This document shows positions 2 to 51,338 of a DNA stretch of 64,000 nucleotides, piece by piece. The position numbers and the translations under genes were made by a program. The stretch is from contig JBAZCA010000001.1 of the NCBI GenBank assembly GCA_041671125.1, forward strand, positions 8,120 through 72,119. The letters run 5' to 3'. The DNA is from Patescibacteria group bacterium. Its GTDB lineage: Bacteria; Patescibacteriota; Patescibacteriia; Patescibacteriales; JBAZCA01. Below the pieces are notes generated by a model that searched no databases, was not told the DNA's origin, and saw only the letters and a program-made list of their open reading frames with translations. Numbering within the stretch: the stretch's first letter is position 1; the number at the start of each line of letters is the position of its first letter.

Positions 2-3000
2 ACTTATACCGAATTCAGCCTGGATAATTCAGCCGGCTTTGTCGGACTTTTATTTTCCGACGAAACTAATACCATGACGGCCGACAAAGTGGCGTATGGA
101 GCCGTTACCACGGCGTCTTTAGCCGAAGGAGGATCTCCGGCTCCGGCGCCTCCGGCCGGCGGTTCGCTTGAACGAAAAGCTTTTCCGGACTCAAGCCCCG
201 CCACTATGGTCGGAGGAATTCACGCGACTAAAGGTAATGCCGAAGATTCAAATAATAATTCAGCCGACTTTATTATCCGCTCGGCTACTGACCTGCCCGG
301 CCCCCAAAATTCGTCCGCCTCGGCCGAAACAAAAGAAATCAGTTCCGCCAGCCGGAGCGTAGTCATTAATGAAGTCCTTTATAACACGACGGCAACCGGC
401 GGCTGGATTGAACTCTTTAACGCTTCGGCCGATCCGATCAGCCTGCAAAACTGGAAAGTGGAAATCGCGACGACCACCGCGGCGCAGGTTTATACCATAA
501 CCGACGCGGTTACTCTCGCTTCCCAGAATTTTGCCGTGGTTTACTGGAACTTAGCCGGAACCAATGATACTGACACTTCTGACGGCAGAGCCGCGCTTTA
601 TACCGGAACCAAACCGGCTATGTCAACTCTAGGCGGCGACATTACTTTGAAAGACAATACTAACGCTATTAAGGATTATATCCAGTACGGCGGATCGGGA
701 AAAACCGGCCAGTCCGCGGCCGCCACCGCCGGGCAATGGTCAACCGGCGATTTTATCCAGGTCTGCAATTATAATGAATCCATAGCGAGAAGAAGCACTA
801 CCGGCGACGATTATAATAATTCCGGAGACTGGATGCATATGAGCGCCCCTTCAGCCGGTTATCCTAATACCGGCGGCGATACTACTTCTCCTTCTTCAAT
901 TACTAATGTTACTTTCAGCGACGCTGATACAACAAATTACGGGCTGGACGGCAACGATGTCCGGGTAGTTTTTACTCCGGCATCCAGTTTTGATTCGTCT
1001 TTTGACCGCTACGAGCTTTTTATCCTTCCCGAAGGCGTCGCCCTTGATCAGTCGCTCCATAAAAAATTCGCGGCGATTTACGGCCAGTACCAGTATGTCG
1101 GCTCTACTGTTCAGGCCAACTATACTTTTACCGGCTACGGGGACTTTAACATGAAATACGACAGCGCCAATAATCCGCTCGCTAACGGCAGTTACCGCGC
1201 TTATGTCGTCGCCGTGGATTTTGCCGGCAACCGGTCTTCGGCTGTTTCTTCTCCGGCCGCGACCATTACCGCCGAAGCCGGGGGCGACGATACTATTCCG
1301 CCGATGATTGACCACATGTCAGTCTGGCAGGCTAAGGCCGAAGCTAACCTTTCTTTTGTTGTCCGCGCCGGTGATGATCGCGGAATTGATACGGTTGAAT
1401 TACCTTATAAAATAAATAACGGCGCCTGGGGGACGGCGACTTCAACCTGCGCCGCGCCGGTGATGTCAGACAACACCGGCTTTTACGCCTGTTCCATTGC
1501 CTGGGACGCCGGCTGGGACGCCGCGACTGTTCTCTCTTATTATATAAAAGCCAAAGATACGGCCGCCAGCCCGAATTACCAGTACATGGGCGCCTATCCG
1601 ACTAACTCGGAAACTACGGCCAAAAGCAATCCCATAAATATTGATTTTGTCGCGGCCGCTGACTGGGAAGACGCCGGAACTGAAGCCGATTTGACCGGCC
1701 GGGTGAATGATACTTCGGGCGCGCCGATTCAGGACGCTTTTGTCTTTATAGAAGGAACTGCTACCGGTTTGGCGACTACGACCGCGGCCGGAGCTTATAC
1801 TATCGCCGATAATATAATACCGGCCGGCAGTCAAAACGTAAAAGCATTAAAAAGCGGCTACATGGACATGATGAAACTGGTCAACCGCGGCCAGACCGCC
1901 GATTTTTTCCTTAATACCGGATTCATGAACACTTCTTCCGGCGGATCCTCCGGCGGAAACGGTGTGGCCTGGTCCGCTCCGATGGACGGCATGATGTGGG
2001 CGCCTACTAATATTTCCTGCTCCGGAGATTGTATGACTGATACCATTCCTATGACTGAAATGCCAATCCTCATCACTTTCTTTAATAACATGAACGCGAC
2101 TACGATTGATGATTCGGATGCTTCTAATTCCGGCTCCAACATATACGTAACCGCCGACGGCCTTACTAAAGTCCCGGGCAAAGTAAAATACAATAATGCC
2201 GCCAAGCAGGCCCGATTTTATTCTTCAACCGCGCTTTCGGCTAACACTTTCTATACGGTCGTGATTACCCCGAACGCGAAAGACCAGGACGGCAATTCCG
2301 TCCAGTCAAACCGCCCCAGCGGCAACTACGAGTTCTCGTTTACTACTATGCCGGATAATACTGATATGTGGGGCGGCGGCGGAACTGACTTTTCCAGCTT
2401 CGGCGACGGCGGAAAATTCATGCCGCCCTACGTCAAAGGAACTAATCCGTCTCCGGGATCTTTTAACATTCCCCTGTCCGCGGTTTTGACGGTGGAATTT
2501 TCCGAGGCCATGGACGCGACTTCAGTTTCAACCGGCATTAAATTATACAAAATCACGAGCGAGTCAAGCTGGACCGTGACTGAGGTAACCGATAAAAGCG
2601 TTAGCGTCAGCCTGGACAGCGCGACTAAAAAACTCGCGACAATAACCCACACCGCCCTGGACACGAACGCCGCCAATAACGGCTGGTATGAACTTAGGGT
2701 AATGGGCTCGGTAAAGAGCCAGCTTGGCGTCTGGATGATTGATCCTGTTTCAGTCGGCTGTTCTGATCCAAATTCATGCGCGGCCATGTCAACGGCTTAT
2801 GTTTTTAATTCCAGTTTTCAGGTTGGAAGTTCGTCTGATACGACCCGGCCGACCGTAACCGGCACCTTTCCTAATAATAATGACGGCATAACCGCGGGAA
2901 CGGCTTCGGCTGACGTGGCCATGTCGGCGATTGAAATCGGCTTTTCCGAAGGCATGAATCCGTCTACGATCAACGCGCAGACCATCACCTTAAAAAACGG

Positions 3001-6000
3001 GACCGCGAGCGTTACCGGGATCCTAGGTTATGATCCGATGTCTAACAGCGCTAAATTCTCTCCGACTAACGCCTTAACGCCAAACACTGCTTACACTTTA
3101 ACCGTCCTTGGCAGTACCGGAGGCGTTGCTGATTTATCAGGCAATACCCTTTTAGCTGACCACATTATTACCTTTAAAACCGGATCAGCCGATACTGCCG
3201 CGCCAAAAGTCATGTTCGCGAACGGCGATGATTACCAGATCGCCCTGACTTTTTCCGAACCCATGAACGCCTCCTTGAAAACCGACACTGACAACTGGGC
3301 TTATTCGGTTTTAAATCCGGCTAATTTCTACGTTAACGCTTTAACTTCGGCTGACAATCCGGCTACCTGGGCCTCCACTCCGACCCTCACCGCCCCTTAT
3401 AATACCGGCACGGGAAATCAGGTCTCAGGACTATCAGGAGTTACGATTACTTATGATCAGACAACCCAGACCGCGATATTAAAAGGTTTTACTTTCCCGG
3501 CTTCAGGAGTTACCCATTTTCAGGTTTTCGCCGACAATGTTAAAGACAAATCCGGCAACGCGATCGGCGATTCCGGCGTCCGCGCTAAGCACTCGGGCGA
3601 TCCGACCTATGATGACGCGGTCGGCCATGACAACGGAGCCCGGGCGCCGATTCAATCCAGCTCCGGCACTTATGGCATGCTCGGACCGGGCGGCGGAGGC
3701 GGAATGATGATGTCCGGCGGCGGAGCTGGCGGAGCGGGAACAACATCAGGCGGCCCGAGCGGTATGGATATGGGAAAAATGGGTATGTTCAGCGCCGGAG
3801 CTTTTCCCATGAACGCCATGACCGGCCAGACTTCCAATTACTTTATTGATCTTCCGGTAACTAAGCCGCTCTCCGACGGCATGCTCATAACTATCACCTT
3901 CCCGACCGGATTTAATGTTTCGGCCGTTGCCAAAGATCCTTACTCGCCCGCCAATAATGACATGAATGATCGGGGCGCCGGAACAATCGGTTTTGACGCG
4001 GCATACGGGGTGGGCGGAGTCGCTTCCACCACACTGAATGTTGTCACCATGAAGCTTGATGTATCCGGAACCCCGAACGCGGCCGCCGGCCCGGATGGTT
4101 TTTATGATTTTCTTCATATTGATCTTAAAGGAGTAAAAAATTCCAATATTGCCAAAGATTTCGGCACTTCCGGCTATACGGCTGATATTAAAACCATGTC
4201 CGCCGACGGCTCGCTTTTGGAAAGTGTTACCACTATGCCCTTCTTTATCACCCAGGGCGGCTCTAATACGCTTACAGTCGTAGTAAACTGCGGCGACACT
4301 GATCAAGATACTGGAACAATGGCAACTTATCTTGGCTCGCCCATGACCGGACCGATGGAAGCGATTTCTTCCACTTTCACTAATGGTATTGCCACCTCCA
4401 CCTTTACCAATCTTTCGGCCGGCCAGTACATGCTCTTTACCGACCCGTTCCTTACTATCGGCGGCGCGAACTATTTAGGCAAACCCATGCCCGAAACCAT
4501 CCAAATTTCCGCGGCGACAGAGAAAAATATTACCATAGAAAAAGAAGGAGCCGGAGCCGGAAAAGCCGCGGTTACGGTTTATCTCTTCGGCGATTTTTCT
4601 ACTGATAGCGCGGCTGATGATGTAGATATATTTGCTAACTCGCCTTCAGGTTTCCGGGTAAAAACCCTTACTGATGTCGGCAGTACCAACCCGAATACCA
4701 CGCTTTACTTAACTGAAGGCGAATGGATGATGGGCGCCGGAATCGCCATGCCTAAAGGTCCGATGTCCGGGTCGCCTGCCAGCCCCGACTGGATGGAACC
4801 ACAAAAAGTCGGTGTTATAGTCGGGATTGAAACCGCGACCGGAAGAAATCTTGATCCTGACGGGGCGACTGACGCGGCCATTGGTAACACCCAGCCGGTG
4901 CTATTAACCGTCGCCAGCACCAATAACTTCAAAGTTGGGGATGTAATAACCTTCGCGACCGGAGCGGCCGCGGCCACCACTACGATTACATCTTTTGTCG
5001 CCAACACTTCCCTAACTTTTACTCCGCAAGGCAACTGGACGACCCTGCCGGCCGCTAACGACGTAATCACCTCAGTTCGCGAGCCTTCTAATGGCCCGAA
5101 TGACAAAAAAGTAAACTTTAATATTTCTACGCAGGCTACCAAGGAAATTAAAGGTTTTGTTTTAGATTCCGATGGCAGTGGAATCGGCAATGCCGAAATA
5201 TACGCTTATCAACCGCAAGGCTTTGGCGGCGGCAATACCACGGCTGATACTTCCGGTAAATTCACCTTAAAAATCGGGACTACCGGAGTCTGGACTATTG
5301 GCGCGTTTAAGCCGGGCATGCCGAGTTCCAAAGAAAAATCCGTTGAAGTAAAAGATAATACTATTGGAGGCGACGGCAATACCACGGCTGATATTTATCT
5401 TGATGGAACAATTATCCATGATGCTACAAATAATAATGCCGGAACAAATCCCTTAAGGCTTAAATTAAAACGGCCCGAATATACCATTTCCGGTAAAGTC
5501 CTTAATACCGGCGGCCAGTCAGTCCCCTACGCTCCGGTTTGGGCGTATCAGCCGACCGGGGGAGGACATTCCGATACTATGACTGACTCTTCCGGAAATT
5601 ACATATTGTACGTTGATGCCGGAACCTGGCGGATTGAAGCTGACGCGCCGAACGTCGGCTGGATGCAGTATTCGCCGGATGTTACTGTAAGCGCCGCTTC
5701 CCAATCCAATATTAATTTAAGGCCATCCGGTTCAGCCACTTATTACAGCGTATCCGGAACAATCACCATTGACGGCTCGGCTCAAAGTTATATTCCTCTT
5801 CGGGCCGCGCTCTACGACGCGAACGGCAATTACCAGGGCCGCGATTACGGCGCTTCAACCGATTCAAACGGCGGCTATACTCTGAGCCTGCCGGCGGGCT
5901 ATTACCGGATTGATACCTGGACCCAGAATTACGGCGAGGTGGAACTGGTTTATGATCAGGTGGCGAGTTCCCAGGCTAATATTAACGTCAACGCCGCGAC

Positions 6001-8767
6001 AACCACCGCCGACATACTAGTAGCGGCGGCGGATCTGCAGACTATTTCCCTCCAGTTTAATAATGGCGCGGCCGCCCAAACCGGATTCCTTAACGTGGAT
6101 GAAGTAACTTTCAACGGCGCTAACCCAATACCGACCGGTTACCATTTCTCAACCAAGATTGACGGTTTGAACGCCACTTCCACCATTAAAATTAAAGGCG
6201 CTTCGGCGGGAAAATATTATTTCTTTGGCCTGGATGTTCCGGGTTATGGCTTTTTCTCTCCGGATACTGCCAGCCGCCAGGCTCTCTCTAACGACAAAGA
6301 TTGCATTAAAGTAACTGACGCGGCCCGGGCGGTTTACTTTACTCTGCCGAACGCTTCTACGGAAATGATAACGGTTAGCGGCACGGTTACCGACGGCTCT
6401 GTCGGCCTCGCGAATGCCTGGGTTTGGATTGGCAGCCCGAATACCGGCTACCATACCGGCGCCGAAACCGGTTCAGCCGGAACTTTCTCTATAACCGTGC
6501 CCAAGCTCGAAAGCGGCACATATAATTTAGGCGCGGATAAGTCCGGCTATATGTCTTCGGCTCCGGCTTCGGTTTCCGCGACTACGGCCAGCGCGGATAA
6601 TACGGTCGCCCTGGGCGCAGCCGCCCGGACGATTGTCGGTTACGTGAAAAACGACTCAGGAACCAACATCCCGAACGCTTATGTCTGGGCTAAAGAAACA
6701 ACCACCGGCAATATGGCTCATACTCCGGCTGACGCCTCAGGCTACTATTCCCTGCCGGTTACTAACGGAACCTGGTCAATTATGGCCGGAGCCGACGGTT
6801 ACAAGGACGGCAATTATAAGGTCAACAACACTAAAACCAACGTTACGGTGGCGGGCGCGATCCAGACTCCGGCCGGCAGTATTGATATTGTCCTGGAAAC
6901 CAACGCGGACTGGACAATGAAAACCAAATCAAAATCCATTACCCCGTCATCCGGCGGAACGGTTGATGATACTGCCGCTTCGGCTACGGGAGTAAAAATT
7001 ACGGCTCCGCCGAACGCTTTAGGTTCCAGCCAGTCTTCCGGCAATCTTGGCATCCAGGAAACCTCGGCCGTTACCGAGACTACCAGTTTTGAGCCTTTGG
7101 GAGGAATCGGAAAAGTAATAACCGCGACGGATAATTCCGGACAGGCCATAACCAACTTAAGCGATTACCTTGATATTGAAATCGTTTATTACAAAGCCAA
7201 TATTGAGGCCATGAATTTAGTGGATTATTCAAAATTAAAGACCCAGACTCTGGGGTACTGGGATAATACCGCCAATAACTGGGTCAACCTGAATACCACG
7301 AGAAAGGCTTATTATAAGCTAGCCGCGGACGCGACCGAATGGACCATGAAATCGGATAGCGCGACGCAAACCGGTTATGAAGAATTTATTGATACTTTAG
7401 CGGCCGGCAGCCCGAGCTACTACGATTATAAGCTGGTATTTATCGGAAAGACTAATCACTTAACCGTATTTTCGGCTATCAACCCGCCTGACGCCCTGGC
7501 CCCGGCCGCTCCGGCCAGCCTCGCGCAGACTTCCGGCGGAGGAACGTCGGTCGGATTATCCTGGGCTGCCGTTACGACCAACGCGGACGCCACCAGTATA
7601 ACGGATTTGCTTGGCTACGAGCTCTATCGCTCTACTGACGGAACAACCTATACTCAGGTTAACACTTCCGATATTTCAGGAACCACCTATACCGATACCG
7701 GCCGGACCGCTTTTACCAGTTACTATTATAAAATTACCGCGGCTGACGACGGCGGCAATGAGTCGGCTTATTCTTCGGCGCTTCAGGTTTGCTCCACCAA
7801 CACGGTTTCAAACGGCCTTGTTGCCGCTGACTGCTCCATTTCCTGCAATACCGGTTACACGCGAAATGGCAACACCTGCGCCGCGAATGCCGGATCAGCC
7901 GCTCCCTCCGGGAATACTACGCATTGCTCTTCGGTCGTTTATGACGAATGGCAGGCATCCTGCGCCGCTGACGGATTTCAGTATCGCAACATCAAATCTT
8001 TTTCGCCTTCCGGCTGTTCCCTTTCTGCGAGCCAGGAGACGGAAAGAAAACGCGCTTGCCCATCATTAGCCGAAGAAGCCCCGGTAACCGAAAAAGCTAA
8101 GGAAATTATTAAAAACACCAAAGAGACAGTAGCTGAAGTCAAAGCTAAAACCGAGGAAACAGCCAAAGCTTTTACGGAAAAACTTACAGCCATAGCGTAT
8201 GACGCCGCGGAAATAATTAAAGCCTCGGTTTCAACGCTTCTGGAAAAACTCGGACTGAAGCGTAATATTACCGATGAGCAAAAGACTGCCGATAAGTTTA
8301 CTAAGATGCTCATTAAGAATCTTAAAGTTGCCGTGAAAGATCAGTCCGCCATTACCAACTTTATTTCTTACGGAACCGAAACAACGTTAAAGCTCGGCGC
8401 CGGAGAACGGGCCGGAGTGCTGAATTCCTATAAATCGGCTTTTGGCAGACTTCCGGCAAAGGAGACCGAATGGAGCGACGCGATAAAAATCGCCAATGGC
8501 CGGTGGCCTTCGGAGCTTAATAAAACCTCGGAAGCCAACGCCACTCTGGCTTTCAGAAAAATCTATAAACGCGCGCCGGACCGGAAAAATTCGAACGACG
8601 ACGCGGCCGTGACGGTTATCGCTTACGGACTCCGGCCAGCCCAAAGGAATGTAAATAGCGAAGCCGCGGCTATTAAATCCTTTAAGGCCATCTACGGTTA
8701 CCCGCCAGTTTCAGCTACTGCTTGGGATATTGTCAGAGCCATTGCCTATTCCGGGGCGAAACGGTAA
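2..8767 (+). CDS. Giant secreted/S-layer-like surface protein, 5'-partial (ORF open to window edge; >2,920 aa)
   Basis: The frame of ORF 74..8767 has no stop back to nt 2. The residues TYTEFSLDNSAGFVGLLFSDETNT precede the listed Met and read like the C-terminal half of a lamin-tail domain (LTD) (..GGSLERK..NNNSADF..PGPQNS). A complete LTD lies at ~355-870 (VVINEVLYN..GGWIELFN..ISLQNW..GGDITLKD..IQYG..ESIARR..NNSGDW). SbsA-type Ig-like modules lie at ~1980-3200 (LTVEFSEAMDATSV, IEIGFSEGMNPSTI, IALTFSEPMNASL). Carboxypeptidase-regulatory-like beta-sandwich repeats lie at ~1690-1870 and 5150-6830 (IKGFVLDSDGSGIGNAEIYAY..TSGKFTL and others). An FN3 domain lies at ~7490-7790 (LSWAAV..GYELYRS..YYYKITAADDGGNES). 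A Cys-rich block at 7790-8060 is followed by a duplicated C-terminal module. Confidence 0.85.
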   Translation, partial: TYTEFSLDNSAGFVGLLFSDETNTMTADKVAYGAVTTASLAEGGSPAPAPPAGGSLERKAFPDSSPATMVGGIHATKGNAEDSNNNSADFIIRSATDLPGPQNSSASAETKEISSASRSVVINEVLYNTTATGGWIELFNASADPISLQNWKVEIATTTAAQVYTITDAVTLASQNFAVVYWNLAGTNDTDTSDGRAALYTGTKPAMSTLGGDITLKDNTNAIKDYIQYGGSGKTGQSAAATAGQWSTGDFIQVCNYNESIARRSTTGDDYNNSGDWMHMSAPSAGYPNTGGDTTSPSSITNVTFSDADTTNYGLDGNDVRVVFTPASSFDSSFDRYELFILPEGVALDQSLHKKFAAIYGQYQYVGSTVQANYTFTGYGDFNMKYDSANNPLANGSYRAYVVAVDFAGNRSSAVSSPAATITAEAGGDDTIPPMIDHMSVWQAKAEANLSFVVRAGDDRGIDTVELPYKINNGAWGTATSTCAAPVMSDNTGFYACSIAWDAGWDAATVLSYYIKAKDTAASPNYQYMGAYPTNSETTAKSNPINIDFVAAADWEDAGTEADLTGRVNDTSGAPIQDAFVFIEGTATGLATTTAAGAYTIADNIIPAGSQNVKALKSGYMDMMKLVNRGQTADFFLNTGFMNTSSGGSSGGNGVAWSAPMDGMMWAPTNISCSGDCMTDTIPMTEMPILITFFNNMNATTIDDSDASNSGSNIYVTADGLTKVPGKVKYNNAAKQARFYSSTALSANTFYTVVITPNAKDQDGNSVQSNRPSGNYEFSFTTMPDNTDMWGGGGTDFSSFGDGGKFMPPYVKGTNPSPGSFNIPLSAVLTVEFSEAMDATSVSTGIKLYKITSESSWTVTEVTDKSVSVSLDSATKKLATITHTALDTNAANNGWYELRVMGSVKSQLGVWMIDPVSVGCSDPNSCAAMSTAYVFNSSFQVGSSSDTTRPTVTGTFPNNNDGITAGTASADVAMSAIEIGFSEGMNPSTINAQTITLKNGTASVTGILGYDPMSNSAKFSPTNALTPNTAYTLTVLGSTGGVADLSGNTLLADHIITFKTGSADTAAPKVMFANGDDYQIALTFSEPMNASLKTDTDNWAYSVLNPANFYVNALTSADNPATWASTPTLTAPYNTGTGNQVSGLSGVTITYDQTTQTAILKGFTFPASGVTHFQVFADNVKDKSGNAIGDSGVRAKHSGDPTYDDAVGHDNGARAPIQSSSGTYGMLGPGGGGGMMMSGGGAGGAGTTSGGPSGMDMGKMGMFSAGAFPMNAMTGQTSNYFIDLPVTKPLSDGMLITITFPTGFNVSAVAKDPYSPANNDMNDRGAGTIGFDAAYGVGGVASTTLNVVTMKLDVSGTPNAAAGPDGFYDFLHIDLKGVKNSNIAKDFGTSGYTADIKTMSADGSLLESVTTMPFFITQGGSNTLTVVVNCGDTDQDTGTMATYLGSPMTGPMEAISSTFTNGIATSTFTNLSAGQYMLFTDPFLTIGGANYLGKPMPETIQISAATEKNITIEKEGAGAGKAAVTVYLFGDFSTDSAADDVDIFANSPSGFRVKTLTDVGSTNPNTTLYLTEGEWMMGAGIAMPKGPMSGSPASPDWMEPQKVGVIVGIETATGRNLDPDGATDAAIGNTQPVLLTVASTNNFKVGDVITFATGAAAATTTITSFVANTSLTFTPQGNWTTLPAANDVITSVREPSNGPNDKKVNFNISTQATKEIKGFVLDSDGSGIGNAEIYAYQPQGFGGGNTTADTSGKFTLKIGTTGVWTIGAFKPGMPSSKEKSVEVKDNTIGGDGNTTADIYLDGTIIHDATNNNAGTNPLRLKLKRPEYTISGKVLNTGGQSVPYAPVWAYQPTGGGHSDTMTDSSGNYILYVDAGTWRIEADAPNVGWMQYSPDVTVSAASQSNINLRPSGSATYYSVSGTITIDGSAQSYIPLRAALYDANGNYQGRDYGASTDSNGGYTLSLPAGYYRIDTWTQNYGEVELVYDQVASSQANINVNAATTTADILVAAADLQTISLQFNNGAAAQTGFLNVDEVTFNGANPIPTGYHFSTKIDGLNATSTIKIKGASAGKYYFFGLDVPGYGFFSPDTASRQALSNDKDCIKVTDAARAVYFTLPNASTEMITVSGTVTDGSVGLANAWVWIGSPNTGYHTGAETGSAGTFSITVPKLESGTYNLGADKSGYMSSAPASVSATTASADNTVALGAAARTIVGYVKNDSGTNIPNAYVWAKETTTGNMAHTPADASGYYSLPVTNGTWSIMAGADGYKDGNYKVNNTKTNVTVAGAIQTPAGSIDIVLETNADWTMKTKSKSITPSSGGTVDDTAASATGVKITAPPNALGSSQSSGNLGIQETSAVTETTSFEPLGGIGKVITATDNSGQAITNLSDYLDIEIVYYKANIEAMNLVDYSKLKTQTLGYWDNTANNWVNLNTTRKAYYKLAADATEWTMKSDSATQTGYEEFIDTLAAGSPSYYDYKLVFIGKTNHLTVFSAINPPDALAPAAPASLAQTSGGGTSVGLSWAAVTTNADATSITDLLGYELYRSTDGTTYTQVNTSDISGTTYTDTGRTAFTSYYYKITAADDGGNESAYSSALQVCSTNTVSNGLVAADCSISCNTGYTRNGNTCAANAGSAAPSGNTTHCSSVVYDEWQASCAADGFQYRNIKSFSPSGCSLSASQETERKRACPSLAEEAPVTEKAKEIIKNTKETVAEVKAKTEETAKAFTEKLTAIAYDAAEIIKASVSTLLEKLGLKRNITDEQKTADKFTKMLIKNLKVAVKDQSAITNFISYGTETTLKLGAGERAGVLNSYKSAFGRLPAKETEWSDAIKIANGRWPSELNKTSEANATLAFRKIYKRAPDRKNSNDDAAVTVIAYGLRPAQRNVNSEAAAIKSFKAIYGYPPVSATAWDIVRAIAYSGAKR

Positions 8768-12564: not shown

Positions 12565-13728
12565 TTATTCTTCCCCAGCCTCTTTAAATAACCCGAGATA
12601 CTCCCGCGCGCACTTTTCCCAGCTGAAAAATTTCGCCCGATCAAGGCCGCGGGCGATAAGCTTTTCTCTTAGCCCCTGATCCGAGAGCGCGTCCCTGAGC
12701 CCGTTTTTAATGTCAGTGATATCATAAGGATCAACCATCAACGCCGCGTTGCCGGCTATTTCCGGCAGGCTGGAAGAAAACCCGGCTACTACCGGAACTC
12801 CCGACGCCATAGCTTCAAGCAAAGGAAAGCCGAAGCCCTCGTAAAACGAAGGAAAAGCAAAAACCTCGGCCAGGTTATAAAGGTAAACTTTTTCTTTTTC
12901 AGGAACATAACCGAGAAAGCGGATGCTCTTTTTATGCTTTGCCTGATTAAATTCTTCGCGGATTCCGGCGGCTTTCCAGCCTTCTCCACCGACGATTATG
13001 AGTTCGTAATCTGCCAAAAAATCGTTCACCGAGGCGGCATTTTTCATTAAGTCAAAAGCGCGGATTAATCCGGTTATGTTTTTTCTCGGCTCAAGCGTCG
13101 CGAGCGATAAAATAAATTTTTTTGGCAAGTTATATTTTTCCCTGATCCTGGCGAGCCGGGGATGGTTTTTAGGAAGCGACCGGTATTCGGATCCGACGCC
13201 GGGATAAATAACCTTTACTTTGGCGCCGTCCGCCCCGCAAAGGTCAATAATGTCGCTTTTAGTGCTTTCGCTCACGGCAATGATATGGTCAAAATTTTTA
13301 ACCAGCCCGCGGACGTTTACGAATTTATGCCAAAAATTTTTCCGGAAAGAAAAAAACTCCTTATGGCGGAGGAATGAAAGGTCGTGGATTACAAGGACGC
13401 TTTTCGCCCGGCCGGAAAGGGCGATAAAATTGATATGCGGCAGAAGATAAATATCGGCCTTAAGCAGGTTGTCAATTTTTGGACGCTTAAAAATTTTAAA
13501 AAAAACGTAATTCAGGAGTTTATTGGGATATTTTCCCCGGATTACCTCAACATTTTTTTTCCTTAAGCCGGCGATTTCCGGATTATCGCCTTTAAAGGTA
13601 TTATAATAAAGCTGATAATGGTTTTCATTATCCAACCTGATCATTTCCCTGATTAAATTAAAATTGTGGAGGGAAACGCCGCTGTAGTTTTGGTCCATTA
13701 AAGTCCGAACGTCTATGCCGACGCGCAT
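12565..13728 (-). CDS. Glycosyltransferase family 4
   Basis: C-terminal GT4 signature: FAFPSFYEGFGFPLLEAMASGVPVVAG..LPEIAGNAALMVDP. 387 aa. Confidence 0.85.
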   Translation of the reverse strand: MRVGIDVRTLMDQNYSGVSLHNFNLIREMIRLDNENHYQLYYNTFKGDNPEIAGLRKKNVEVIRGKYPNKLLNYVFFKIFKRPKIDNLLKADIYLLPHINFIALSGRAKSVLVIHDLSFLRHKEFFSFRKNFWHKFVNVRGLVKNFDHIIAVSESTKSDIIDLCGADGAKVKVIYPGVGSEYRSLPKNHPRLARIREKYNLPKKFILSLATLEPRKNITGLIRAFDLMKNAASVNDFLADYELIIVGGEGWKAAGIREEFNQAKHKKSIRFLGYVPEKEKVYLYNLAEVFAFPSFYEGFGFPLLEAMASGVPVVAGFSSSLPEIAGNAALMVDPYDITDIKNGLRDALSDQGLREKLIARGLDRAKFFSWEKCAREYLGLFKEAGEE

Positions 13729-13840: not shown

Positions 13841-14563
13841 TCACTTATCTTTAAAAAATCTCCAGGCGATAAACTTCGCCGGAAAAACTATCACCGCGTT
13901 TATGATTCTTTTATAGCGTTTTTTCGGCTCACGTAACAGCCGCCAGACCCATTCCAACCCGGCCGCGCGCATAAAACCGGGCGCCCGCTTTATTTTTCCG
14001 GTTAAAAAATCAAAAGCCCCGCCCACCCCGATGGCCAGCCTGGCGTTCGGCCATTTTATCAGGTTGTGATAAATGAATTTTTCCTGAAAAGTCGCTCCCT
14101 GGTCGCAAAAAATTATTTCGGCATTCGTAGTCGGCGCGCTTTTTACCGTCCGGCTGACTGCCAGAACTTCAAAAGACAATCCCGGATATTTTTTCTTAAG
14201 CGCCCCGGCAATATCCTCTTTTCGCGAAAGGGATTTTTCCCAGTTCATGACCGCGACTTTCATTTTCATTTTTCGCGCTAACTCAAAAATTTCGCCCGTT
14301 AAATCCGAGCCGGCGGTAATTTTCAAATTTTTTCCCATTGCCAAGGCCGCGAATTTAAGGCCGGTCCCGTCAGGAATGGCAATATCCGCTTTATTTAAAA
14401 TATGGAAAAACTCCTCGTCCTTTTCCGCGAGAAGAAGCATTTCCGGATTGGGCGTAACGAGGTAATGTTTCTTTCCGTCAATCAAAAAAGCCCCGATAGT
14501 TTTCAGAATCTCCGTTTTGCCGGCCTTAGCCAGGTTTATTCCGAGAATGTTAATCTTTTCCAT
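13841..14563 (-). CDS. WecB/TagA/CpsF family glycosyltransferase (GT26)
   Basis: INILGINL..HYLVTPNPEMLLLAEKDEEFFHILNKADIAIPDGTGLKFAA..LAIGVGGAFDFLTGKIKRAP..GLEWVWRLLREPKKRYKR is the typical WecG/TagA pattern. Confidence 0.85.
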   Translation of the reverse strand: MEKINILGINLAKAGKTEILKTIGAFLIDGKKHYLVTPNPEMLLLAEKDEEFFHILNKADIAIPDGTGLKFAALAMGKNLKITAGSDLTGEIFELARKMKMKVAVMNWEKSLSRKEDIAGALKKKYPGLSFEVLAVSRTVKSAPTTNAEIIFCDQGATFQEKFIYHNLIKWPNARLAIGVGGAFDFLTGKIKRAPGFMRAAGLEWVWRLLREPKKRYKRIINAVIVFPAKFIAWRFFKDK

Positions 14564-17473: not shown

Positions 17474-20273
17474 AATTCACGGTAATTATCACCGGATCGG
17501 TCGGATCGCCGGTTATGTCGGGCAAAAGCCGCGATACGGCGCCTTCGGCAATGAGGCTGTTAAAATATGTCTGGAAACTGCCGGCTAAAACGCGGTTGTC
17601 AGTATCAACGTAAACGTCAAAGAATAATTCCTGGCCGGGCTTTATTGTTATATTTCCGAGGGAAAGGATATTAGCGCCGGCGACAGGACGGCTGATATTC
17701 CCAAGCTTTCTGCCCGACGCCCTTTCAGCAATCCTCAAGTTAAAGAATCCGAGGCTTGAGGTAAATCCGGCGGCGTCAGTCGTTATTTCAATTTGTTTTA
17801 ACCTAATATCTTCAATTCCTAAGTTGGCGATATTAAAGCTGGCAACAAGGTTATTATTCGCGTCAAGAATCGCTGTTCCGCCGTTGACTGAAATTATGTC
17901 TAGAGCGGTAATATCAAAGAAAACCGGAAGGCTTTGGCAAGGCAGTCCCTCGGCCTGAGCCGGAATGCCTGATTTATAACCAACGGCTACGATCTCACTT
18001 AAAACCATCCGGGTTTCCGACACCCTTAGGTCGCGGACCGTATCGGCAACGATGATAAGCTTAACCCGGCTGCCATTTTTCAAAACTTGGTTAAAACCGC
18101 TAATGGCGAAAGTGGCGCCCGTCGGCTCATAAATGACTTGGCTTGCCCGTTTGCCGTTAATATAAGCCCTGAGGTCGGAAAAGCCGTTATCGTAGGTTAT
18201 CGCCCCGGAACTATCGCCTTGCGCTACTGTCAGCCCGTTAATGACAATATCTTCGCCCGCCGAAGCTTCTAGGATAAAGTTAGCAACAGTCACTCCGCCT
18301 TCGCCCTTTATATAAGTAAGGCCTTCGGTCTCATGGTTCGGGTAAACGTAAAGGCCGGAGCTGGTAACGTTTAACTTCGCTCCCGGCGCCTTAATCGCGT
18401 CGCTGTAATGGGCGCCGTTTTCGGCCGAATAATTTATTTTGCTTAAAACCGCCATGTAATAATCGCCGGCCGAAGTGTCTTTGGGAATATCGGTAATCAG
18501 GGTTACGGTAAGGTTCTTTTTCGCTTCCAGCGCTGCCGGAACCATATTAATAACGGCCGGTCCGGCGCTTAACGCTATTCCTTCAACATGCCCATAAATT
18601 TCGCCGGTAGCGTAATTAACGAGATAGACTGTCGCTTCAATTCGCGGAGCCGAAGAATTTTTTTGCAGCTCAAATTCAAAGCTCTGCAAGGTAATTTTTT
18701 TGTTGTTATTCCTTATCTCAAAATTGCCGACAATCACTCCTTTCTGCCGTGAAAAAACTTTGGTATTGGTTTTTAAATCCTTGGCAACAACGCCGATATA
18801 TTCCCTTTTTATGGTCTGGCTTTCGTCAAGGCTATAAATATCGGCCGGGAGCCCGAGGCCGGTATTTTTTCCAATAACTTTTATTTCCAGTAAATTGAAG
18901 TTGAACGTTTTTTCTTCGCCGTCAATAATATCGGCAGTGGCTAAAAAAGTTTCCTTGGAGTCTTTTGCTATTGCGTAATTACTGACATTAAAATAAAGCT
19001 TGTTGTCGCCCGAAAGCGCCGCGGCCTGCGCGATAATTTTTCCGGAACTGTTTTTCAGTTTAAAATTTTTTATCATCTCCGGCCTGGTTGTTCCTTTAGT
19101 TGTTAAAGTTATTAACTTTACGGCCAGGTCTTCATTTTTCGTCAGTTCCGACAGGCTGAATTTAATTATTGGCTGTTCGGTTGAACCGATAATCGCCCGA
19201 TTGTTATAGCCGTTAAGGCTTAACTCATCAGCCCGAAGCTTCCCCAGGACTCCGTCGCCGACGAGGATTTTTTGGCGCGCGGAAATCAACGGAAACCCTC
19301 CGGCTACCGGGGAATCCGCGGAAACATAGCCGGTATTTTCCATTGATACCTGAAAGGCCTGGCCTTCGTTGGCTTTAGAGCCGCCGAGATTAATATAGAC
19401 TAATATTTTTTTTACTTCGCCCGGAGCAAGCGATAATCCGGCGGGCCTGAAATTAAAAGTAACTTTGCGGCCGCTCCGGTTAGCGACAGAATCTTCGTAT
19501 TTCACGCCGGCGGAGTTAGCGAGATAGATGTCTCTTATCAAGTCTTCCGAATAAACACCTTTAAGATCAAGGGCAATACTTTTAATGACAATCGTTTTTT
19601 CCGACCGGGAAATGAGATCAAAAACCGCCGCCAGATTATCTCTCGTGTTTACGACGGCGTAACCTTCTTTCGGGCTCGCGGAATCAAGATAAACTCCCAA
19701 CCCGGAATAATCCTTTTCGGATTTTCCATTAACGGTTATTTGCCCGGAAGAATTATAAAGCTCGGCCAGGCTGGTTTCTTTATAGGAATTAAAATCAGCT
19801 AAAGAAAGCGTAAGCACGTCTTTCCAATCAAAGCCTAATCCGATAAATTCGCTCTCAGACCGAATAAGCGCTTTTTTTCCGCCACTAATATAAAATACTC
19901 CGGCGTTATCGGTGGTTTTTATCAGCTCGGCGTCCTTCCATAAATCCAGCTCTTCCGAAGATACAATTATTATGTCTGACCAATGATTTCCGTATGACAG
20001 ATAAGCTGAGGCGGAAACATAAACTTTTTTCAGGCCGCGTTCATGATTAAGATAATAAACCGCCGCACTATCAGCGGTTTTTACCTGCCTGATACCCCTG
20101 CTAAGGCCATCGGCCGCTAGGGTATCATTGGAAATAGCATTAAAAACCAATCCTATGGCCAAAGTAAAGAAAGCGAGCTTAAAAAACATTGTCATGACTC
20201 CGCTATGCCATTCCAGTAGGATTGCGCTTCTTTTCTTTAAGTGATATTTAGCTAATTTTAAATAATTTTTCAT
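17472..20273 (-). CDS. Large secreted/anchored hypothetical protein (933 aa), beta-rich repeats
   Basis: It has a signal/anchor segment (MTMFFKLAFFTLAIGLVFNAISNDTLAA). Alternative starts exist at 20195 and 20189. The rest is a long beta-strand-rich sequence with no catalytic motif I recognise. The N-terminal module reads VKTADSAAVYYLNHERGLKKVYVSASAYLSYG. Confidence 0.6.
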   Translation of the reverse strand: MKNYLKLAKYHLKKRSAILLEWHSGVMTMFFKLAFFTLAIGLVFNAISNDTLAADGLSRGIRQVKTADSAAVYYLNHERGLKKVYVSASAYLSYGNHWSDIIIVSSEELDLWKDAELIKTTDNAGVFYISGGKKALIRSESEFIGLGFDWKDVLTLSLADFNSYKETSLAELYNSSGQITVNGKSEKDYSGLGVYLDSASPKEGYAVVNTRDNLAAVFDLISRSEKTIVIKSIALDLKGVYSEDLIRDIYLANSAGVKYEDSVANRSGRKVTFNFRPAGLSLAPGEVKKILVYINLGGSKANEGQAFQVSMENTGYVSADSPVAGGFPLISARQKILVGDGVLGKLRADELSLNGYNNRAIIGSTEQPIIKFSLSELTKNEDLAVKLITLTTKGTTRPEMIKNFKLKNSSGKIIAQAAALSGDNKLYFNVSNYAIAKDSKETFLATADIIDGEEKTFNFNLLEIKVIGKNTGLGLPADIYSLDESQTIKREYIGVVAKDLKTNTKVFSRQKGVIVGNFEIRNNNKKITLQSFEFELQKNSSAPRIEATVYLVNYATGEIYGHVEGIALSAGPAVINMVPAALEAKKNLTVTLITDIPKDTSAGDYYMAVLSKINYSAENGAHYSDAIKAPGAKLNVTSSGLYVYPNHETEGLTYIKGEGGVTVANFILEASAGEDIVINGLTVAQGDSSGAITYDNGFSDLRAYINGKRASQVIYEPTGATFAISGFNQVLKNGSRVKLIIVADTVRDLRVSETRMVLSEIVAVGYKSGIPAQAEGLPCQSLPVFFDITALDIISVNGGTAILDANNNLVASFNIANLGIEDIRLKQIEITTDAAGFTSSLGFFNLRIAERASGRKLGNISRPVAGANILSLGNITIKPGQELFFDVYVDTDNRVLAGSFQTYFNSLIAEGAVSRLLPDITGDPTDPVIITVN

Positions 20274-23938: not shown

Positions 23939-24095
23939 CTTGTTCCAGAAACTATAATGTACCTATAAATTCAGACAGGTATCTTTGGTGGAAAATTGTT
24001 ATATGTGCGGTTGTTCAGATGGAGCTTGCCAGGCTAATGGAACTTGTGCGGTTGTCTCGAGGCGTTATAATATTGGAGATTTTGAAAATTAAAGG

Positions 24096-24166
24096 TGGAC
24101 TCACCGGGAATCGGACCCGGACCTCGGCAATGCGAATGCCGCGTAATACCGTTTTACTATGAGCCC
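24096..24166 (-). tRNA. tRNA-Ala (anticodon CGC)
   Basis: The reverse complement is GGGCTCA TA GTAA AACGGTA TTAC G CGGCA TTCGCAT TGCCG AGGT CCGGG TCCGATT CCCGG TGAGTCC A. It folds into a cloverleaf with anticodon loop TT-CGC-AT and the G3:U70 alanine identity pair. Oddities are a T-loop of TCCGATT (C at position 55) and a 4-nt variable loop. CCA is not encoded. Confidence 0.75.
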
Positions 24167-36247: not shown

Positions 36248-37354
36248 TTATTTCAGCGCTTCATAAAGCCTGATAACCCGCTTTTTAGCGTCAAATTCGG
36301 CGAATACCCGCTTTCTCCCGGCCTCGCCGAGCGTCCGCCTAAGCTCCGGATCTTTTGCCAGGGCGATTATCGCCTTGAGAATTTCATCTTTTTCCTCCGG
36401 GTTTACGAGTAGTCCGTTCACCCCGTTAACTACGGCATCCCGCACGCCGCCTGAATCACCGGCGATTACCGGCTTGCCCGCGAGATTCGCTTCAAGGTAA
36501 ACAATGCCGAATCCCTCGGCATCGCCTTTTATCCTTCTTGAGGGCATGATAAAAAAATCGCAAAGCGAAAGCCATGCCCATTTTTCTTCATCCGAAGGCT
36601 TGCCCGCGAATATGACCCGGGCTTTCGCCGTCGTAGGCAAATCCTGCCATTTTTCCTTTAAATAATTTTCGTCCGGCCCGGTTCCGGCGATAACATATAC
36701 GAGGTCCGGGGCTTTGGCAAGGGCTTTGGGAAAAATTTTTAAAACATAATCCGCCCCTTTTCTTTTTACCAGCCGCCCGAGCGAAAGCATAACCGTCTTC
36801 CCTTTAAGACCATATTTTTCTCGAATTTTTTCCGCGAGTTCATGCCCGGCCTTTTCCTTTGCTTCCTCGCCAAAAAGGTTTATTCCCGGGTTGGATATTA
36901 TGATTTTATCCTTAAGCGGTCCGCCATTTTCTTCCGCTACCAATCCGGCCACGTAGCTGTTGGCGCAAATTATCTTTTCCGCTCCAGCGAGAATCCTCCG
37001 GGTAATAAAAGATTTCCGCTCGGTCTTAAAAGCGAAATTGTAATCCAGCCCGTGGAGGATTACCGAATACTCAAGGGAAAAAAGTTTATGGAGGACGTAG
37101 GCCGGGATGCCGAGCGGCAGGATATTGCCGACCAGCACATGGTTGATCTTTTTCGCCTTGCAGAAAATTGCCAGCCGCCAAAGCGACGGAAGCCATTTGA
37201 AAAAAGGCAAAACCCGCGAGATGAGGCGTCCGCGATTGTTATGGAGGACAAAAATATTTTCCTTTTCCGGCCAGTGTTCCGCTATTTTTTCGTAATAATC
37301 GGCCACCCCGCCTTTGAACGGCGGGTATTCAAGGGTGAATAAAAGAAAGCGCAT
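36248..37354 (-). CDS. Glycosyltransferase family 4
   Basis: LFTLEYPPFKGGVADY and the C-terminal PSRRIKGDAEGFGIVYLEANLAGKPVIAGDSGGVRDAV are present. The start is at ATG 37354; the ORF-track start is a TTG inside the repeat. Confidence 0.85.
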   Translation of the reverse strand: MRFLLFTLEYPPFKGGVADYYEKIAEHWPEKENIFVLHNNRGRLISRVLPFFKWLPSLWRLAIFCKAKKINHVLVGNILPLGIPAYVLHKLFSLEYSVILHGLDYNFAFKTERKSFITRRILAGAEKIICANSYVAGLVAEENGGPLKDKIIISNPGINLFGEEAKEKAGHELAEKIREKYGLKGKTVMLSLGRLVKRKGADYVLKIFPKALAKAPDLVYVIAGTGPDENYLKEKWQDLPTTAKARVIFAGKPSDEEKWAWLSLCDFFIMPSRRIKGDAEGFGIVYLEANLAGKPVIAGDSGGVRDAVVNGVNGLLVNPEEKDEILKAIIALAKDPELRRTLGEAGRKRVFAEFDAKKRVIRLYEALK

Positions 37355-37362
37355 AAAGTAAT

Positions 37363-37439
37363 CAATTAGCAATTATCAATTACGAATTAAACCTTTTTTT
37401 TTAAAAAATTCGTAATTCGTAATTATTAATTTGTGATTG
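37363..37439. repeat. AATTNNN-unit inverted repeat between the flippase and GT4 genes
   Basis: caattagcaattatcaattacgaatt faces aattcgtaattcgtaattattaatttgtgattg across the centre aaaccttttttttttaaaaa. The right arm encodes the flippase C-terminus (..PITN*). Confidence 0.85.
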
Positions 37440-38907
37440 GCGTATCAACGGCGTCTTCCTTAATCTCCGGCTTTTTCTTAAATGATTCCATAATACTTAA
37501 AATGTCTTCCTTTTTTAATCCGCCGAGAAGAAAAAGGGCAGCAAAATAAATTGCCGCGCCCAGCGTCGTAACGATAAATATATTCAGGCTGGACTTAAAA
37601 TAATATACCGCGAAAGCCATCAGTCCGGCCGATAAAAGCGACTTCGCGAGAATAATTATATTTTTCTTTAGCCGGTAATCTATAATTTTTTTTACTATGA
37701 TTATTCCCAGCGCGACCTGCAGAACCCCGGAAACCGACGAAGCAATACTCGCGCCGATTACCCCGATCCGGGGGATTAAAATCAGGTTTAAAGCGGCGCT
37801 CGTCAAAGCGACAGCTCCCATGATATAGGTATTTTGTTTTTGCCGGTCGCAGGCGTTTAAAAGGGAGCCGATCGGAAAATTTACAAAAGTAAACAGCAAT
37901 TGGGCGATGGTAATTTGCAGGGGCAGGATCGCTTCCGAATAGCCGGATTTAAAAATCAAAACGATCTTGTCGGCGATCATGATAATACCAACGCTTATCG
38001 GTATGGAAATGACTATTAAATAATTCATCGCCCGCTCAAAAGTGACGGATAACTGCCCTTTATTTTTTATCCAATAGAGGGAAAGCGCCGGATAAAGCGA
38101 AGCGGCAAAAGCCATCGGCAAAAACTGCAGGGCGATGATCATTTTAAAGGCCACCTGATAAATTCCAACCGCCCGGTCGCCGGACAAAAGCGATAAAAGC
38201 ACCGAATCAAGAAAAGTATAAACCCGATTTAAGACACCGTACAAAGTAAAAGCGACGGAAATGCCGACTATATATTTTATGCGCGAAAAATCCCAGTCCG
38301 GCCTGATTTTTATCTTCCATTTAACCGCGACAAGATACATGGAATAAAAAAAGTTAAAGGCGCTCGCGGCGATTAACGGCAGGAACATCCACTTTAACCC
38401 GGCGCCGACTTTAACGAGCGCCACTCCCGCGCCGATTACGATCAGCTGAAAAATAATTGATCCAGCGCTTTCGTACGCGAGGTTATGGAAGCCGCGGATG
38501 GTGGAAAAAAATGACAAAGTGAATGAGTCCATTGCCATGCAGAGCATTGACAGGTAAACGAGATACCTGGTTAAGCCTGGGTAACCGAGCGCGTTTATTA
38601 AAACCGCCGCCGCTACGAAAGATACGGCCGTCAAAGGGATTTTCATGGCCAGAATGCTCCCTAAAAATTTTTCCGCTTTGGCGTTGTCTTTGGCCACCTC
38701 CCGAATTAAAACCCCGGCAAACCCAAGGTCAATAATTATGGAAAAAATCGTGGTAAACGAAATGGCGAAATAATATTTACCGAGATCTTCCGGGCCGAGG
38801 TAGCGCGCTAAAATTATGAAATAACTGAAAGAAATCACCTTCTGCAGTATCAGGGCGACGGTAAAATAAGAAGTGTTCTTGGCGATGTTGGCGATTTTTC
38901 CCGGCAT
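37426..38907 (-). CDS. Wzx/MOP-superfamily oligosaccharide flippase
   Basis: About 490 aa with 12-14 TM helices. The N-terminus IAKNTSYFTVALILQKVISFSYFIILARYLGPEDLGKY is typical of polysaccharide biosynthesis (Wzx-like) proteins. The start is taken at ATG 38907. Confidence 0.75.
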   Translation of the reverse strand: MPGKIANIAKNTSYFTVALILQKVISFSYFIILARYLGPEDLGKYYFAISFTTIFSIIIDLGFAGVLIREVAKDNAKAEKFLGSILAMKIPLTAVSFVAAAVLINALGYPGLTRYLVYLSMLCMAMDSFTLSFFSTIRGFHNLAYESAGSIIFQLIVIGAGVALVKVGAGLKWMFLPLIAASAFNFFYSMYLVAVKWKIKIRPDWDFSRIKYIVGISVAFTLYGVLNRVYTFLDSVLLSLLSGDRAVGIYQVAFKMIIALQFLPMAFAASLYPALSLYWIKNKGQLSVTFERAMNYLIVISIPISVGIIMIADKIVLIFKSGYSEAILPLQITIAQLLFTFVNFPIGSLLNACDRQKQNTYIMGAVALTSAALNLILIPRIGVIGASIASSVSGVLQVALGIIIVKKIIDYRLKKNIIILAKSLLSAGLMAFAVYYFKSSLNIFIVTTLGAAIYFAALFLLGGLKKEDILSIMESFKKKPEIKEDAVDTPITN

Positions 38908-39010
38908 AATTGTTATTGTGTTCAACTTTCGTAACACGGACACGAAACCGCAATATAAAATAAAGGCGCGTAAGTCCTTTATAGCATTATACTACAAGCC
39001 GCTGAAAAGC

Positions 39011-48726: not shown

Positions 48727-48754
48727 AATAAATAAAAGTTAAGTTGTGAATTAC

Positions 48755-48859
48755 CAATGATCAATGATCAATTTTCAATGAATTTTCAATGATTCAATGA
48801 TAAAATTTTCAAACGTTTGGAAATTGAAAATTGATTAATTGAAAATTCATTGATCATTG
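48755..48859. repeat. About 105-nt imperfect palindrome of CAATGAT/AATTTTC units in the ftsI-murF gap
   Basis: caatgatcaatga (48755-48767) pairs perfectly with tcattgatcattg (48847-48859). Internally, aattttcaat pairs with attgaaaatt. The centre is aaacgttt. Confidence 0.85.
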
Positions 48860-48879
48860 TAAATTGATAATTGATAATT

Positions 48880-50904: not shown

Positions 50905-51008
50905 GTTTTCATTTTGTTTTATTTTTTTATGTTAGCACGACAAGCGCAATATAAGTCAAAAGTTAAAAGTGCAAAGTTTAAAATTATTTTTGATACTTCA
51001 ACTTTTAA

Positions 51009-51338
51009 CTATCTCTTCGCCACTCCCATGGATGGGGCAATATAATCAATTTTATTAACCTTCACCAATCCCAGCCTCTTTACTTTTTCGTCAATTTTCG
51101 AATATGCCTGGAGTTTCATAATTTTTAATTCCAAGTCCGCGTTCTCGGCGCTAAGATCATTAATCTTCTTGTTTATTTCTCCGAGCTCAAAGCCTTTAAC
51201 TGAAAGCGAATTTACACCGAAAAGGAAAACTCCGAAACCCATAAAAATAAGAAAGAAGATAATCCTGTTTATAATCCGGAGGCTTAGGCCTTCTTTCATT
51301 TTCATGAACAGATCTTTTTTTTCTTTGAATGAAGACAT
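51009..51338 (-). CDS. ftsL: FtsL-like cell-division protein
   Basis: 109 aa with a single TM segment (IIFFLIFMGFGVFLFGV) followed by a coiled coil (INDLSAENADLELKIMKLQ). It sits between rsmH and ftsI. Confidence 0.6.
   Translation of the reverse strand: MSSFKEKKDLFMKMKEGLSLRIINRIIFFLIFMGFGVFLFGVNSLSVKGFELGEINKKINDLSAENADLELKIMKLQAYSKIDEKVKRLGLVKVNKIDYIAPSMGVAKR

Follow-up and report, generated by a model that had tools for sequence, protein, structure and literature searches.

What gene opens this stretch of DNA, how far does it run beyond the left edge, and how might so large a product be held by the cell? We addressed these questions for the first 8,767 nucleotides (nt) of a 64,000-nt stretch (hereafter the window) of contig JBAZCA010000001.1, from a Patescibacteria group bacterium, an uncultivated, ultra-small member of the Candidate Phyla Radiation (CPR). 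The gene belongs to a family of giant proteins of fixed architecture, and the basic module that ends its product is most likely a non-covalent cell-envelope anchor shared by many CPR secreted proteins, as judged from sequence comparison and structure prediction.

Extent of the gene and its N-terminus

Frame +2 is free of stops from nt 2 to a TAA at 8765-8767, a run of 2,921 sense codons whose chance in random sequence is ~(61/64)^2921, roughly e^-140; a stop-free run this improbable marks a real coding region. An earlier note on this DNA had recognised the open frame and had argued that the annotated Met at nt 74, encoded by the earliest ATG in the window, is internal to a gene of more than 2,897 codons that continues leftwards. 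We extended the sequence with a public contig, ENA ERZ27249449 k141_529545 (L001), which aligns to the window over 18,767 nt with 0 mismatches (window nt 1 = L001 7386). On L001 the frame stays open for another 335 codons to the left, as far as an ATG at L001 6382, placing the gene at L001 6382-16152 and its true start 1,004 nt left of the window. Because an in-frame TAA sits four codons upstream of this ATG, there is no alternative earlier start. The leftward extension recommended in the note thus yielded a true start with a signal-peptide-like N-terminus and a nearest upstream stop lying beyond that start, and the Met at nt 74 is Met360 of the complete product. The region preceding the true start (40 nt; L001 6340-6381) consists of AT-rich direct repeats (tcattcttaattc...), and inspection of these 40 nt revealed no Shine-Dalgarno-like sequence close to the ATG.

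The full product (P0001) has 3,256 residues and, in a protein-collection search, proved 100% identical across the window part. It is deposited at NCBI as MFA6927637.1, 'MAG: carboxypeptidase regulatory-like domain-containing protein [Patescibacteria group bacterium]', and JGI names the same sequence 'protocatechuate 3,4-dioxygenase beta subunit'. The GC content of the gene is 52%, versus 41-46% elsewhere, and recent horizontal transfer was considered and rejected on codon evidence: the excess lies entirely at codon position 2, where it reflects amino-acid composition, GC3 is ordinary, and synonymous codon usage agrees with that of the remaining window at r = 0.97, which together indicate a native gene. 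Antisense and out-of-frame open reading frames (ORFs) of at least 100 codons inside the gene have no Pfam support bar one meaningless 16.6-bit match and no public gene call; the idea that any of them is real was rejected, as the note had anticipated for the antisense ones.

The N-terminus recovered on L001 reads MFQAKKLFKAVTLWLALVSMIIWSVGLPANLTFFLPSAKA-AGG, comprising a basic n-region, a 17-residue hydrophobic core and A-x-A followed by AGG, and this A-x-A plus AGG site is kept in orthologues. Residues 7-35 form the sole transmembrane (TM)-like hydrophobic stretch of the whole protein. There is no hydrophobic segment beyond residue 60 (maximum KD19, a 19-residue Kyte-Doolittle score, 1.40), and hence no C-terminal TM helix, and the LP.TG motif is absent throughout; sortase (LPXTG) anchoring and a C-terminal TM helix were therefore both rejected for this protein. 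The mature protein, of ~336 kDa and isoelectric point (pI) 4.5, contains 11.6% Thr, 9.5% Ser and 6.5% Asn, compared with 3.9, 5.2 and 4.4% in ten other window proteins, which bears out its description as Thr/Ser/Asn-rich.

The C-terminal module and its replacements

An AlphaFold2 (AF2) model of the last ~236 residues, computed from 108 homologues, is all-alpha (pLDDT 95.6, pTM 0.87), with a 43-residue helix leading into a compact bundle. Homology between the halves of this bundle (E 4e-5) agrees with the duplicated C-terminal module that had been proposed. The module has a pI of 9.93 (net +13) as against 4.34 (net -129) for the body, and the family-wide medians are 9.65 for the module and 4.25 for the rest of the protein; an acidic passenger carrying a basic wall-binding domain is characteristic of Lactobacillus surface-layer (S-layer) proteins. 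Twenty relatives, aligned on a conserved FN3 motif, end in ...AWDIVRAIAYSGA[KT]R, as do five more that lack the FN3 motif. The last residues, Y-S-G-A-x-R, are nearly invariant and almost always terminal, identity over the last 56 residues is at least 80%, and the module is the best-conserved part of the protein. Profile searches found no relatives of it in Pfam, NCBIfam or PDB sequences, and a Foldseek comparison with the PDB returned nothing significant (best E 0.55).

An exhaustive profile search recovered the module in 1,401 cluster representatives (932 at E <= 1e-30), on carriers ranging from ~160 to 3,605 residues and, judged by source names, apparently almost confined to CPR bacteria. 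Of 279 near-complete copies, 272 stop no more than three residues short of the C-terminus, and a crude hydrophobicity rule calls signal-peptide-like N-termini in 90 of 144 carriers. The carriers' passenger domains belong to extracellular classes (S8 subtilases, GDSL lipases, beta-helix, surface Ig, fn3, CHB_HEX_C, GH30 and ice-binding-like domains), and one complete small protein (P0119) consists of a signal peptide plus the module. No other gene within the window or its upstream flank bears it.

Other collinear orthologues of the giant protein hold different C-terminal elements at the same position. Gracilibacteria orthologues carry three SLH domains (P0021, E 8e-35; P0022, by precomputed hits), P0023 (E 3e-25) and P0024 (precomputed SH3_3 hits) carry two bacterial SH3 domains, P0026 and P0029 carry PG_binding_1, P0033, P0035 and P0036 carry Trp-rich repeats, and P0037 ends in a TM helix. 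SLH, SH3_3, PG_binding_1 and a C-terminal TM helix are recognised envelope anchors. Pfam finds no SLH domain, the type that binds a secondary cell-wall polymer, in the giant protein itself. The organism encodes FtsI, MurE and FemAB, which indicates that it makes peptidoglycan, and the window also encodes a WecG/TagA-family enzyme, a family that includes TagA, the committing enzyme of wall-teichoic-acid linkage-unit synthesis. Taken together, the replacement of the module by other anchors, its distribution, its carriers, the charge contrast and the wall genes point to a non-covalent envelope anchor that would be reused across the CPR secretome.

With moderate confidence, we favour a reading in which the giant protein is exported by Sec, is held non-covalently at the wall by its basic C-terminal module and projects its sandwiches as a fibre for contact or adhesion. 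The extent and domain content of the gene, its family, the distribution, charge and predicted fold of the module and the exchange of anchors among orthologues are shown here; what we infer is export, anchoring, orientation and a contact role. The N-terminal signal peptide would take the chain through Sec, and the acidic body would fold extracellularly into a long, non-repetitive chain of about two dozen beta-sandwich domains, comprising an unassigned N-domain, two LTD, three Big_5, six CarboxypepD_reg, FN3 and several unassigned sandwiches, with a flexible Gly/Met-rich middle. The last ~180 residues, a basic helical bundle, would bind the envelope non-covalently, most likely through an anionic wall polymer or peptidoglycan. 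With the C-terminus on the wall, the less conserved, LTD-bearing N-terminal third would face outward and touch other cells or surfaces. Three features expected of a fibrillar adhesin, namely a putative export signal, a beta-sandwich stalk and an envelope anchor, are all found here, the anchor being deduced from the swap and the charge.

The module might instead be a partner-binding, oligomerisation or sorting domain, which we regard as improbable. It could, for example, dock secreted proteins on another envelope protein, or be recognised and removed by a processing enzyme; in that case an uncleaved N-terminal signal anchor would hold the giant protein, or the protein would be set free. The near-invariant terminal Y-S-G-A-x-R is what one would expect of a recognition tag, and the helix that precedes the bundle, the long N-terminal hydrophobic segment and the existence of small proteins such as P0119 also speak for this possibility. 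That SLH, SH3b, PG_binding_1 or a TM helix can take the module's place, however, points specifically to envelope attachment, as does the family-wide pairing of a basic module with acidic passengers. Moreover, known sorting signals consist of short motifs plus a TM helix and are not known to include a folded, soluble domain of 180 residues.

A separate observation concerns the alternative tails. A 933-residue protein encoded at window 17475-20273 (minus strand), with a signal-peptide-like start and no Pfam hit, shares homology across its residues 62-185 with the alternative tails that end P0023, P0024 and P0028 (E 2e-9 to 9e-8), and we read this shared tail as a putative second un-curated end module of CPR surface proteins.

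Architecture of the body and the surrounding genes

The collinear architecture is shared by ~45 proteins of 2,300-3,600 residues. Searched with two peptide patterns, species-representative genomes yielded the giant gene in about 20 metagenome-assembled genomes (MAGs), once per genome, the sole apparent double hit being one gene split over two contigs. Genomes of the family are labelled Falkowbacteria, Gracilibacteria, Peribacteria, Parcubacteria/Paceibacterota and Moraniibacteriota, and three 'uncultured Gammaproteobacteria'. Identity among relatives is 45-55% in the N-terminal third, 60-74% over residues 1550-2900 and low in the second Cys group. The number of repeats is invariant across orthologues, every domain differs from the others and is conserved in its own right, and the architecture does not change between classes.

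The earlier note had described two or more LTD, SbsA-type Ig modules and six or more CarboxypepD_reg-like sandwiches, all of which were recovered by profile searches above the Pfam cut-offs (LTD 34.3, Big_5 23.6, CarboxypepD_reg 32.3 bits). The two LTD copies (PF00932) span residues 253-367 (48.7 bits) and 449-564 (47.2 bits); the window opens at residue 336, inside the first copy. The units LTD1 (251-436) and LTD2 (447-632) can be aligned over their full lengths, both finishing at NNS[AG]D[FW]...S[AM]; window codons 1-95 are therefore the tail of LTD1, exactly where the note had placed the remnant of an additional domain. Big_5 (PF13205), the SbsA-type bacterial Ig domain, scores 87.5 bits over three stretches of the whole protein, with separate chunks giving 55.8 and 66.9 bits, and CarboxypepD_reg (PF13620) scores 146.3 bits over six stretches. 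The FN3 assignment is borderline: fn3 (PF00041) scores 15.5 bits on the whole protein and 21.1 on a chunk, both below the cut-off of 25 bits, whereas a profile of 20 relatives matches the solved FN3 domains 1k85 and 3mpc at E 8e-4 and precomputed PF00041 hits exist in orthologues P0003, P0005 and P0018. The cysteine block had been credited with nine cysteines and contains eight, in two groups of four; the second group is an indel that about 8 of the 20 closest relatives share. Pfam assigned no family to residues 42-250, 640-895, 1400-1545 and 2616-2837, of which residues 42-250 also had no match in PDB sequences, and it reported no RTX or type I secretion system (T1SS)-type repeats.

In an AF2 model of residues 1545-2050, the Gly/Met-rich stretch is mostly predicted to be disordered, up to ~residue 1597, and the central region is all-beta, with a pLDDT of roughly 70-90 before residue ~1920 and 55-86 afterwards. 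Foldseek matched the central region to Bacillus anthracis TIE, Gram-positive pilins, adhesin stalks and S-layer proteins and to no enzyme fold; the best match was 6fwv (E 1e-7), and BcpA, PitA and EbpB were also among the matches. These results bear on the database names, according to which the giant protein would be an enzyme. The case for that reading consists of the NCBI and JGI record names; profile searches of Pfam, NCBIfam and the PDB found no catalytic peptidase or dioxygenase domain, and the modelled central region is all beta-sandwich with the Foldseek result just given. We reject it as highly improbable and trace the names to the transthyretin-like CarboxypepD_reg sandwich, a non-catalytic fold. 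A conserved motif, MPKGPM...PDWMxP, lies at window about 4748-4801 (plus strand); in both this motif and the Gly/Met-rich stretch, Met, Pro and Gly residues are invariant among the 20 closest relatives, and the two may act as a hinge, bind metal or be sites of processing.

Several observations weigh against the wall-anchored contact fibre that we favour. The signal peptide is long (~40 residues) and could be an uncleaved membrane anchor. The module offers no sequence or structure relative in Pfam, NCBIfam or the PDB from which a function could be borrowed, and the signal-peptide calls on its carriers come from a crude rule. One carrier of 681 residues, P0170, combines the DEAD and Helicase_C domains of a DEAD-box helicase with the module (residues 536-681); unless it is an artefact of fusion or assembly, it speaks against an exclusively extracellular role. 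Pfam and PDB profile searches found no recognisable adhesive tip or ligand-binding domain. Finally, classical giant adhesins have near-identical tandem repeats that vary in number, and the fixed, non-repetitive architecture seen here suits a structural coat at least as well as an adhesin.

Such a coat would share the export and C-terminal anchoring proposed above, with the body self-assembling as a two-dimensional array and not as a fibre. We consider an S-layer of this kind rather unlikely, though several points speak in its favour. Gracilibacteria orthologues end in three SLH domains, and S-layer proteins are classically anchored by such a run; Big_5 is the Ig domain of the SbsA S-layer type; the architecture is fixed, non-repetitive and single-copy across classes; and the composition, which is acidic, rich in Thr, Ala and Gly and poor in Cys, is the one usual in S-layer proteins. 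Foldseek matches include the S-layer proteins 7ptp, 8qox and 5ftx, but these are generic beta-sandwich matches with TM-scores below 0.2. Cryo-electron microscopy (cryo-EM) shows a two-dimensional surface array on ultra-small CPR cells. An apparent S-layer has been reported on Ca. Nealsonbacteria cells (10.1101/2022.04.20.488981), which counts towards a coat, and the CPR envelope has been described as unresolved (PMC5220378). Against a coat, the 336 kDa protein is about twice the length of the largest entry, 1,741 residues, in the part of a published survey covered here (10.1101/2024.05.28.596244), whose supplementary table, as far as covered, lists predicted Patescibacteria S-layer proteins of 643-1,274 residues from other lineages. 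The earlier suggestion of an 'S-layer or host-attachment protein' thus holds for the class, an exported, envelope-anchored surface protein, and either role may apply.

The abundance of glycosylation genes in the window, to which the note had also drawn attention, was confirmed: four or five glycosyltransferases (GTs) of the GT4/GT1 families, WecG/TagA, a Wzx-type flippase, two DegT, a GT-C enzyme and a Wzy_C protein (Table 1). The GT-C enzyme is a candidate protein O-/N-glycosyltransferase or lipid-linked glycan transferase. Enrichment of N-glycosylation sequons in the giant protein was looked for and not found (45 NxS/T observed versus 42.8 expected); O-glycosylation of the Thr/Ser-rich body is plausible on sequence grounds, and the glycan genes could equally make the wall polymer bound by the module. 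A bolder reading, which we offer tentatively as possible but doubtful, is that the module defines a CPR-wide wall-targeting system, a counterpart of SLH, CWB2 and LysM, that binds a lineage-specific anionic wall glycopolymer and marks most of the surface proteome, with the 3,256-residue protein as its largest client and the main 'S-layer' coat. As part of the same tentative proposal, the glycopolymer might be made by glycosylation genes like WecG/TagA, the GT4s, Wzx, Wzy_C and GT-C of the window.

Upstream of the giant gene, L001 1-6139 holds on its minus strand an 854-residue gene, a DUF5667 protein and an extracytoplasmic function (ECF) sigma factor, and on its plus strand an HTH_17 protein (128 residues) followed by a 92-residue ORF. 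This block is syntenic in four relatives (L004, L005, L023 and L025), down to 43% protein identity, and the ECF sigma factor and DUF5667 protein may be an envelope-stress sigma/anti-sigma pair regulating the giant gene. Downstream synteny (L31, RF1, PrmC) is kept only in the closest relative. Elsewhere, the Wzy_C gene adjoins two GT4 genes and a group of three radical-SAM genes at 59058-62225, of which two encode SPASM domains, and a protein of ~287 residues with a signal-peptide/TM-like start and no Pfam hit (54066-54965, minus strand) coincides with a GC bump at 54-56 kb. An RNA scan found no RNA gene at this bump, and a tRNA-Ala (CGC) at 24094-24166 (minus strand) was the only RNA gene that it detected in the window.

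Table 1. Features of the giant gene and of the surrounding window (window coordinates, nt; residues numbered on P0001)
Feature	Position	Strand	Basis
3' 8,766 nt of the giant gene, codons 336-3256 plus stop	2..8767	+	Open frame, P0001, L001
Tail of LTD1, residues 336-430; domain begins ~residue 253, outside the window	2..286	+	Pfam, LTD1/LTD2 alignment
Internal Met360 ATG, not a start codon, inside LTD1	74..76	+	L001/P0001 extension
LTD2; Pfam core nt 341-688	335..877	+	Pfam 47.2 bits
Residues 640-895, conserved among orthologues, no family above threshold; weak Big_13, E 0.014	914..1681	+	Pfam
CarboxypepD_reg-like (transthyretin-type) sandwich number 1	1691..1873	+	Pfam 32.9 bits, E 8.5e-8
Three Big_5 Ig-like domains	2063..3181	+	Pfam 87.5 bits; residues 1023-1117 and 1281-1395 located
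Residues 1400-1545, conserved, no family match	3194..3631	+	Pfam, relatives' alignment
Gly/Met-rich low-complexity stretch, conserved; 20 Gly and 10 Met in 54 residues	3674..3835	+	Composition, AF2 model
Central region, best conserved of the body, several all-beta sandwich domains	3836..5146	+	AF2 model, Foldseek, 60-74% identity
Five CarboxypepD_reg-like sandwiches, clustered	5147..6841	+	Pfam PF13620 and PF13715
Residues 2616-2837, conserved, no family match	6842..7507	+	Pfam, relatives' alignment
FN3-like domain	7508..7783	+	Pfam fn3 21.1 bits, sub-threshold
Cys block, 8 Cys as two groups of 4; second group (nt 7925-8059) a lineage-specific insertion	7790..8059	+	No family hit
Helical linker before the module, holding most of the 43-residue helix	8060..8221	+	AF2 helix, model residues 12-54
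Basic, internally duplicated all-alpha C-terminal module, residues 3076-3256	8222..8764	+	AF2, profile searches
GT4/GT1 enzymes	12565-13728, 36248-37372, 56505-57695, 57821-59056
WecG/TagA-family enzyme, 5 kb downstream of the giant gene	13841-14563
GT-C enzyme, 621 residues	28938-30800	-	PMT_2 28.4 bits (cut-off 26.1), STT3 26.9 bits (cut-off 24.5)
Wzx-type flippase	37426-38943
Division/cell-wall cluster: MraZ, MraW, FtsL-like, FtsI-type penicillin-binding protein, MurE	47446-52904	-
Wzy_C (O-antigen ligase / PglL-type) protein	62304-63665	+	76.7 bits
DegT aminotransferases, two in the window

Significance and comparison with known systems

Literature searches turned up no description of the family or of the module. 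Giant beta-sandwich surface proteins anchored at one end are well known as a kind, and the protein itself is already public under generic or wrong names; the module is curated nowhere, lacks any solved structural relative and occurs very widely in CPR. CPR bacteria make up a large share of bacterial diversity. A giant envelope protein that is conserved and single-copy, and in which SLH, SH3b or PG-binding domains can take the place of the end module, offers a concrete candidate for the surface structures observed by cryo-EM. The simple signature of the module, ...RAIAYSGA[KT]R at the carboxyl end, could be used to predict the surface proteome of uncultivated CPR from MAGs, and the module could serve as a fluorescent probe to label or capture CPR cells and help to identify the wall polymer that it is predicted to bind. 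The misleading names 'carboxypeptidase regulatory-like' and 'protocatechuate dioxygenase beta subunit' are also corrected.

The giant protein shares with the predicted Patescibacteria S-layer proteins (10.1101/2024.05.28.596244) a phylum, signal peptides, anchoring domains and a proposed role in a surface lattice; in the part of that source covered here, the table description sets those proteins apart, as they have 643-1,274 residues and come from Nealson-, Doudna-, Kaiser-, Kazan-, Yanofsky- and Vogelbacteria. A similar plan is seen in SLH-anchored surface proteins of Firmicutes (Geobacillus SbsA/SbsB/SbsC, Bacillus anthracis Sap/EA1), with a signal peptide, an acidic Ig-sandwich body and a non-covalent end module, the last of these by our reading in the present case, and the Gracilibacteria orthologues even carry the three SLH domains. 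Unlike them, the giant protein is ~3x larger and has a putative anchor that is C-terminal, all-alpha and unrelated to SLH in sequence and fold.

Giant fibrillar 'periscope' adhesins (SiiE, LapA, MpIBP, Ebh, Bap) likewise exceed 3,000 residues and consist of strings of Ig-like or CnaB-like sandwiches held to the envelope at one end, and Foldseek matched the giant protein to an adhesin extender (6xi3) and to Bap (7c7u). It differs from them in having no near-identical tandem repeats, repeat-number variation, LPXTG, RTX/T1SS-type repeats or recognised ligand-binding head. The CnaB/transthyretin-like chains of Gram-positive pilins and B. anthracis TIE gave the best structural matches of the central region, whereas the giant protein has neither a sortase motif nor a pilin motif, and the low global TM-scores (0.15-0.25) place this likeness at the level of single domains.

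The module, for its part, bears no sequence or fold relationship to the Gram-positive wall-binding modules (Clostridioides CWB2, the Lactobacillus SlpA wall-binding domain, LysM and SH3b) and is, by source names, almost confined to CPR. It nevertheless resembles them in serving as one module on many secreted passengers, in its positive charge relative to acidic passengers, in its position at the protein end and in its internal repeat.

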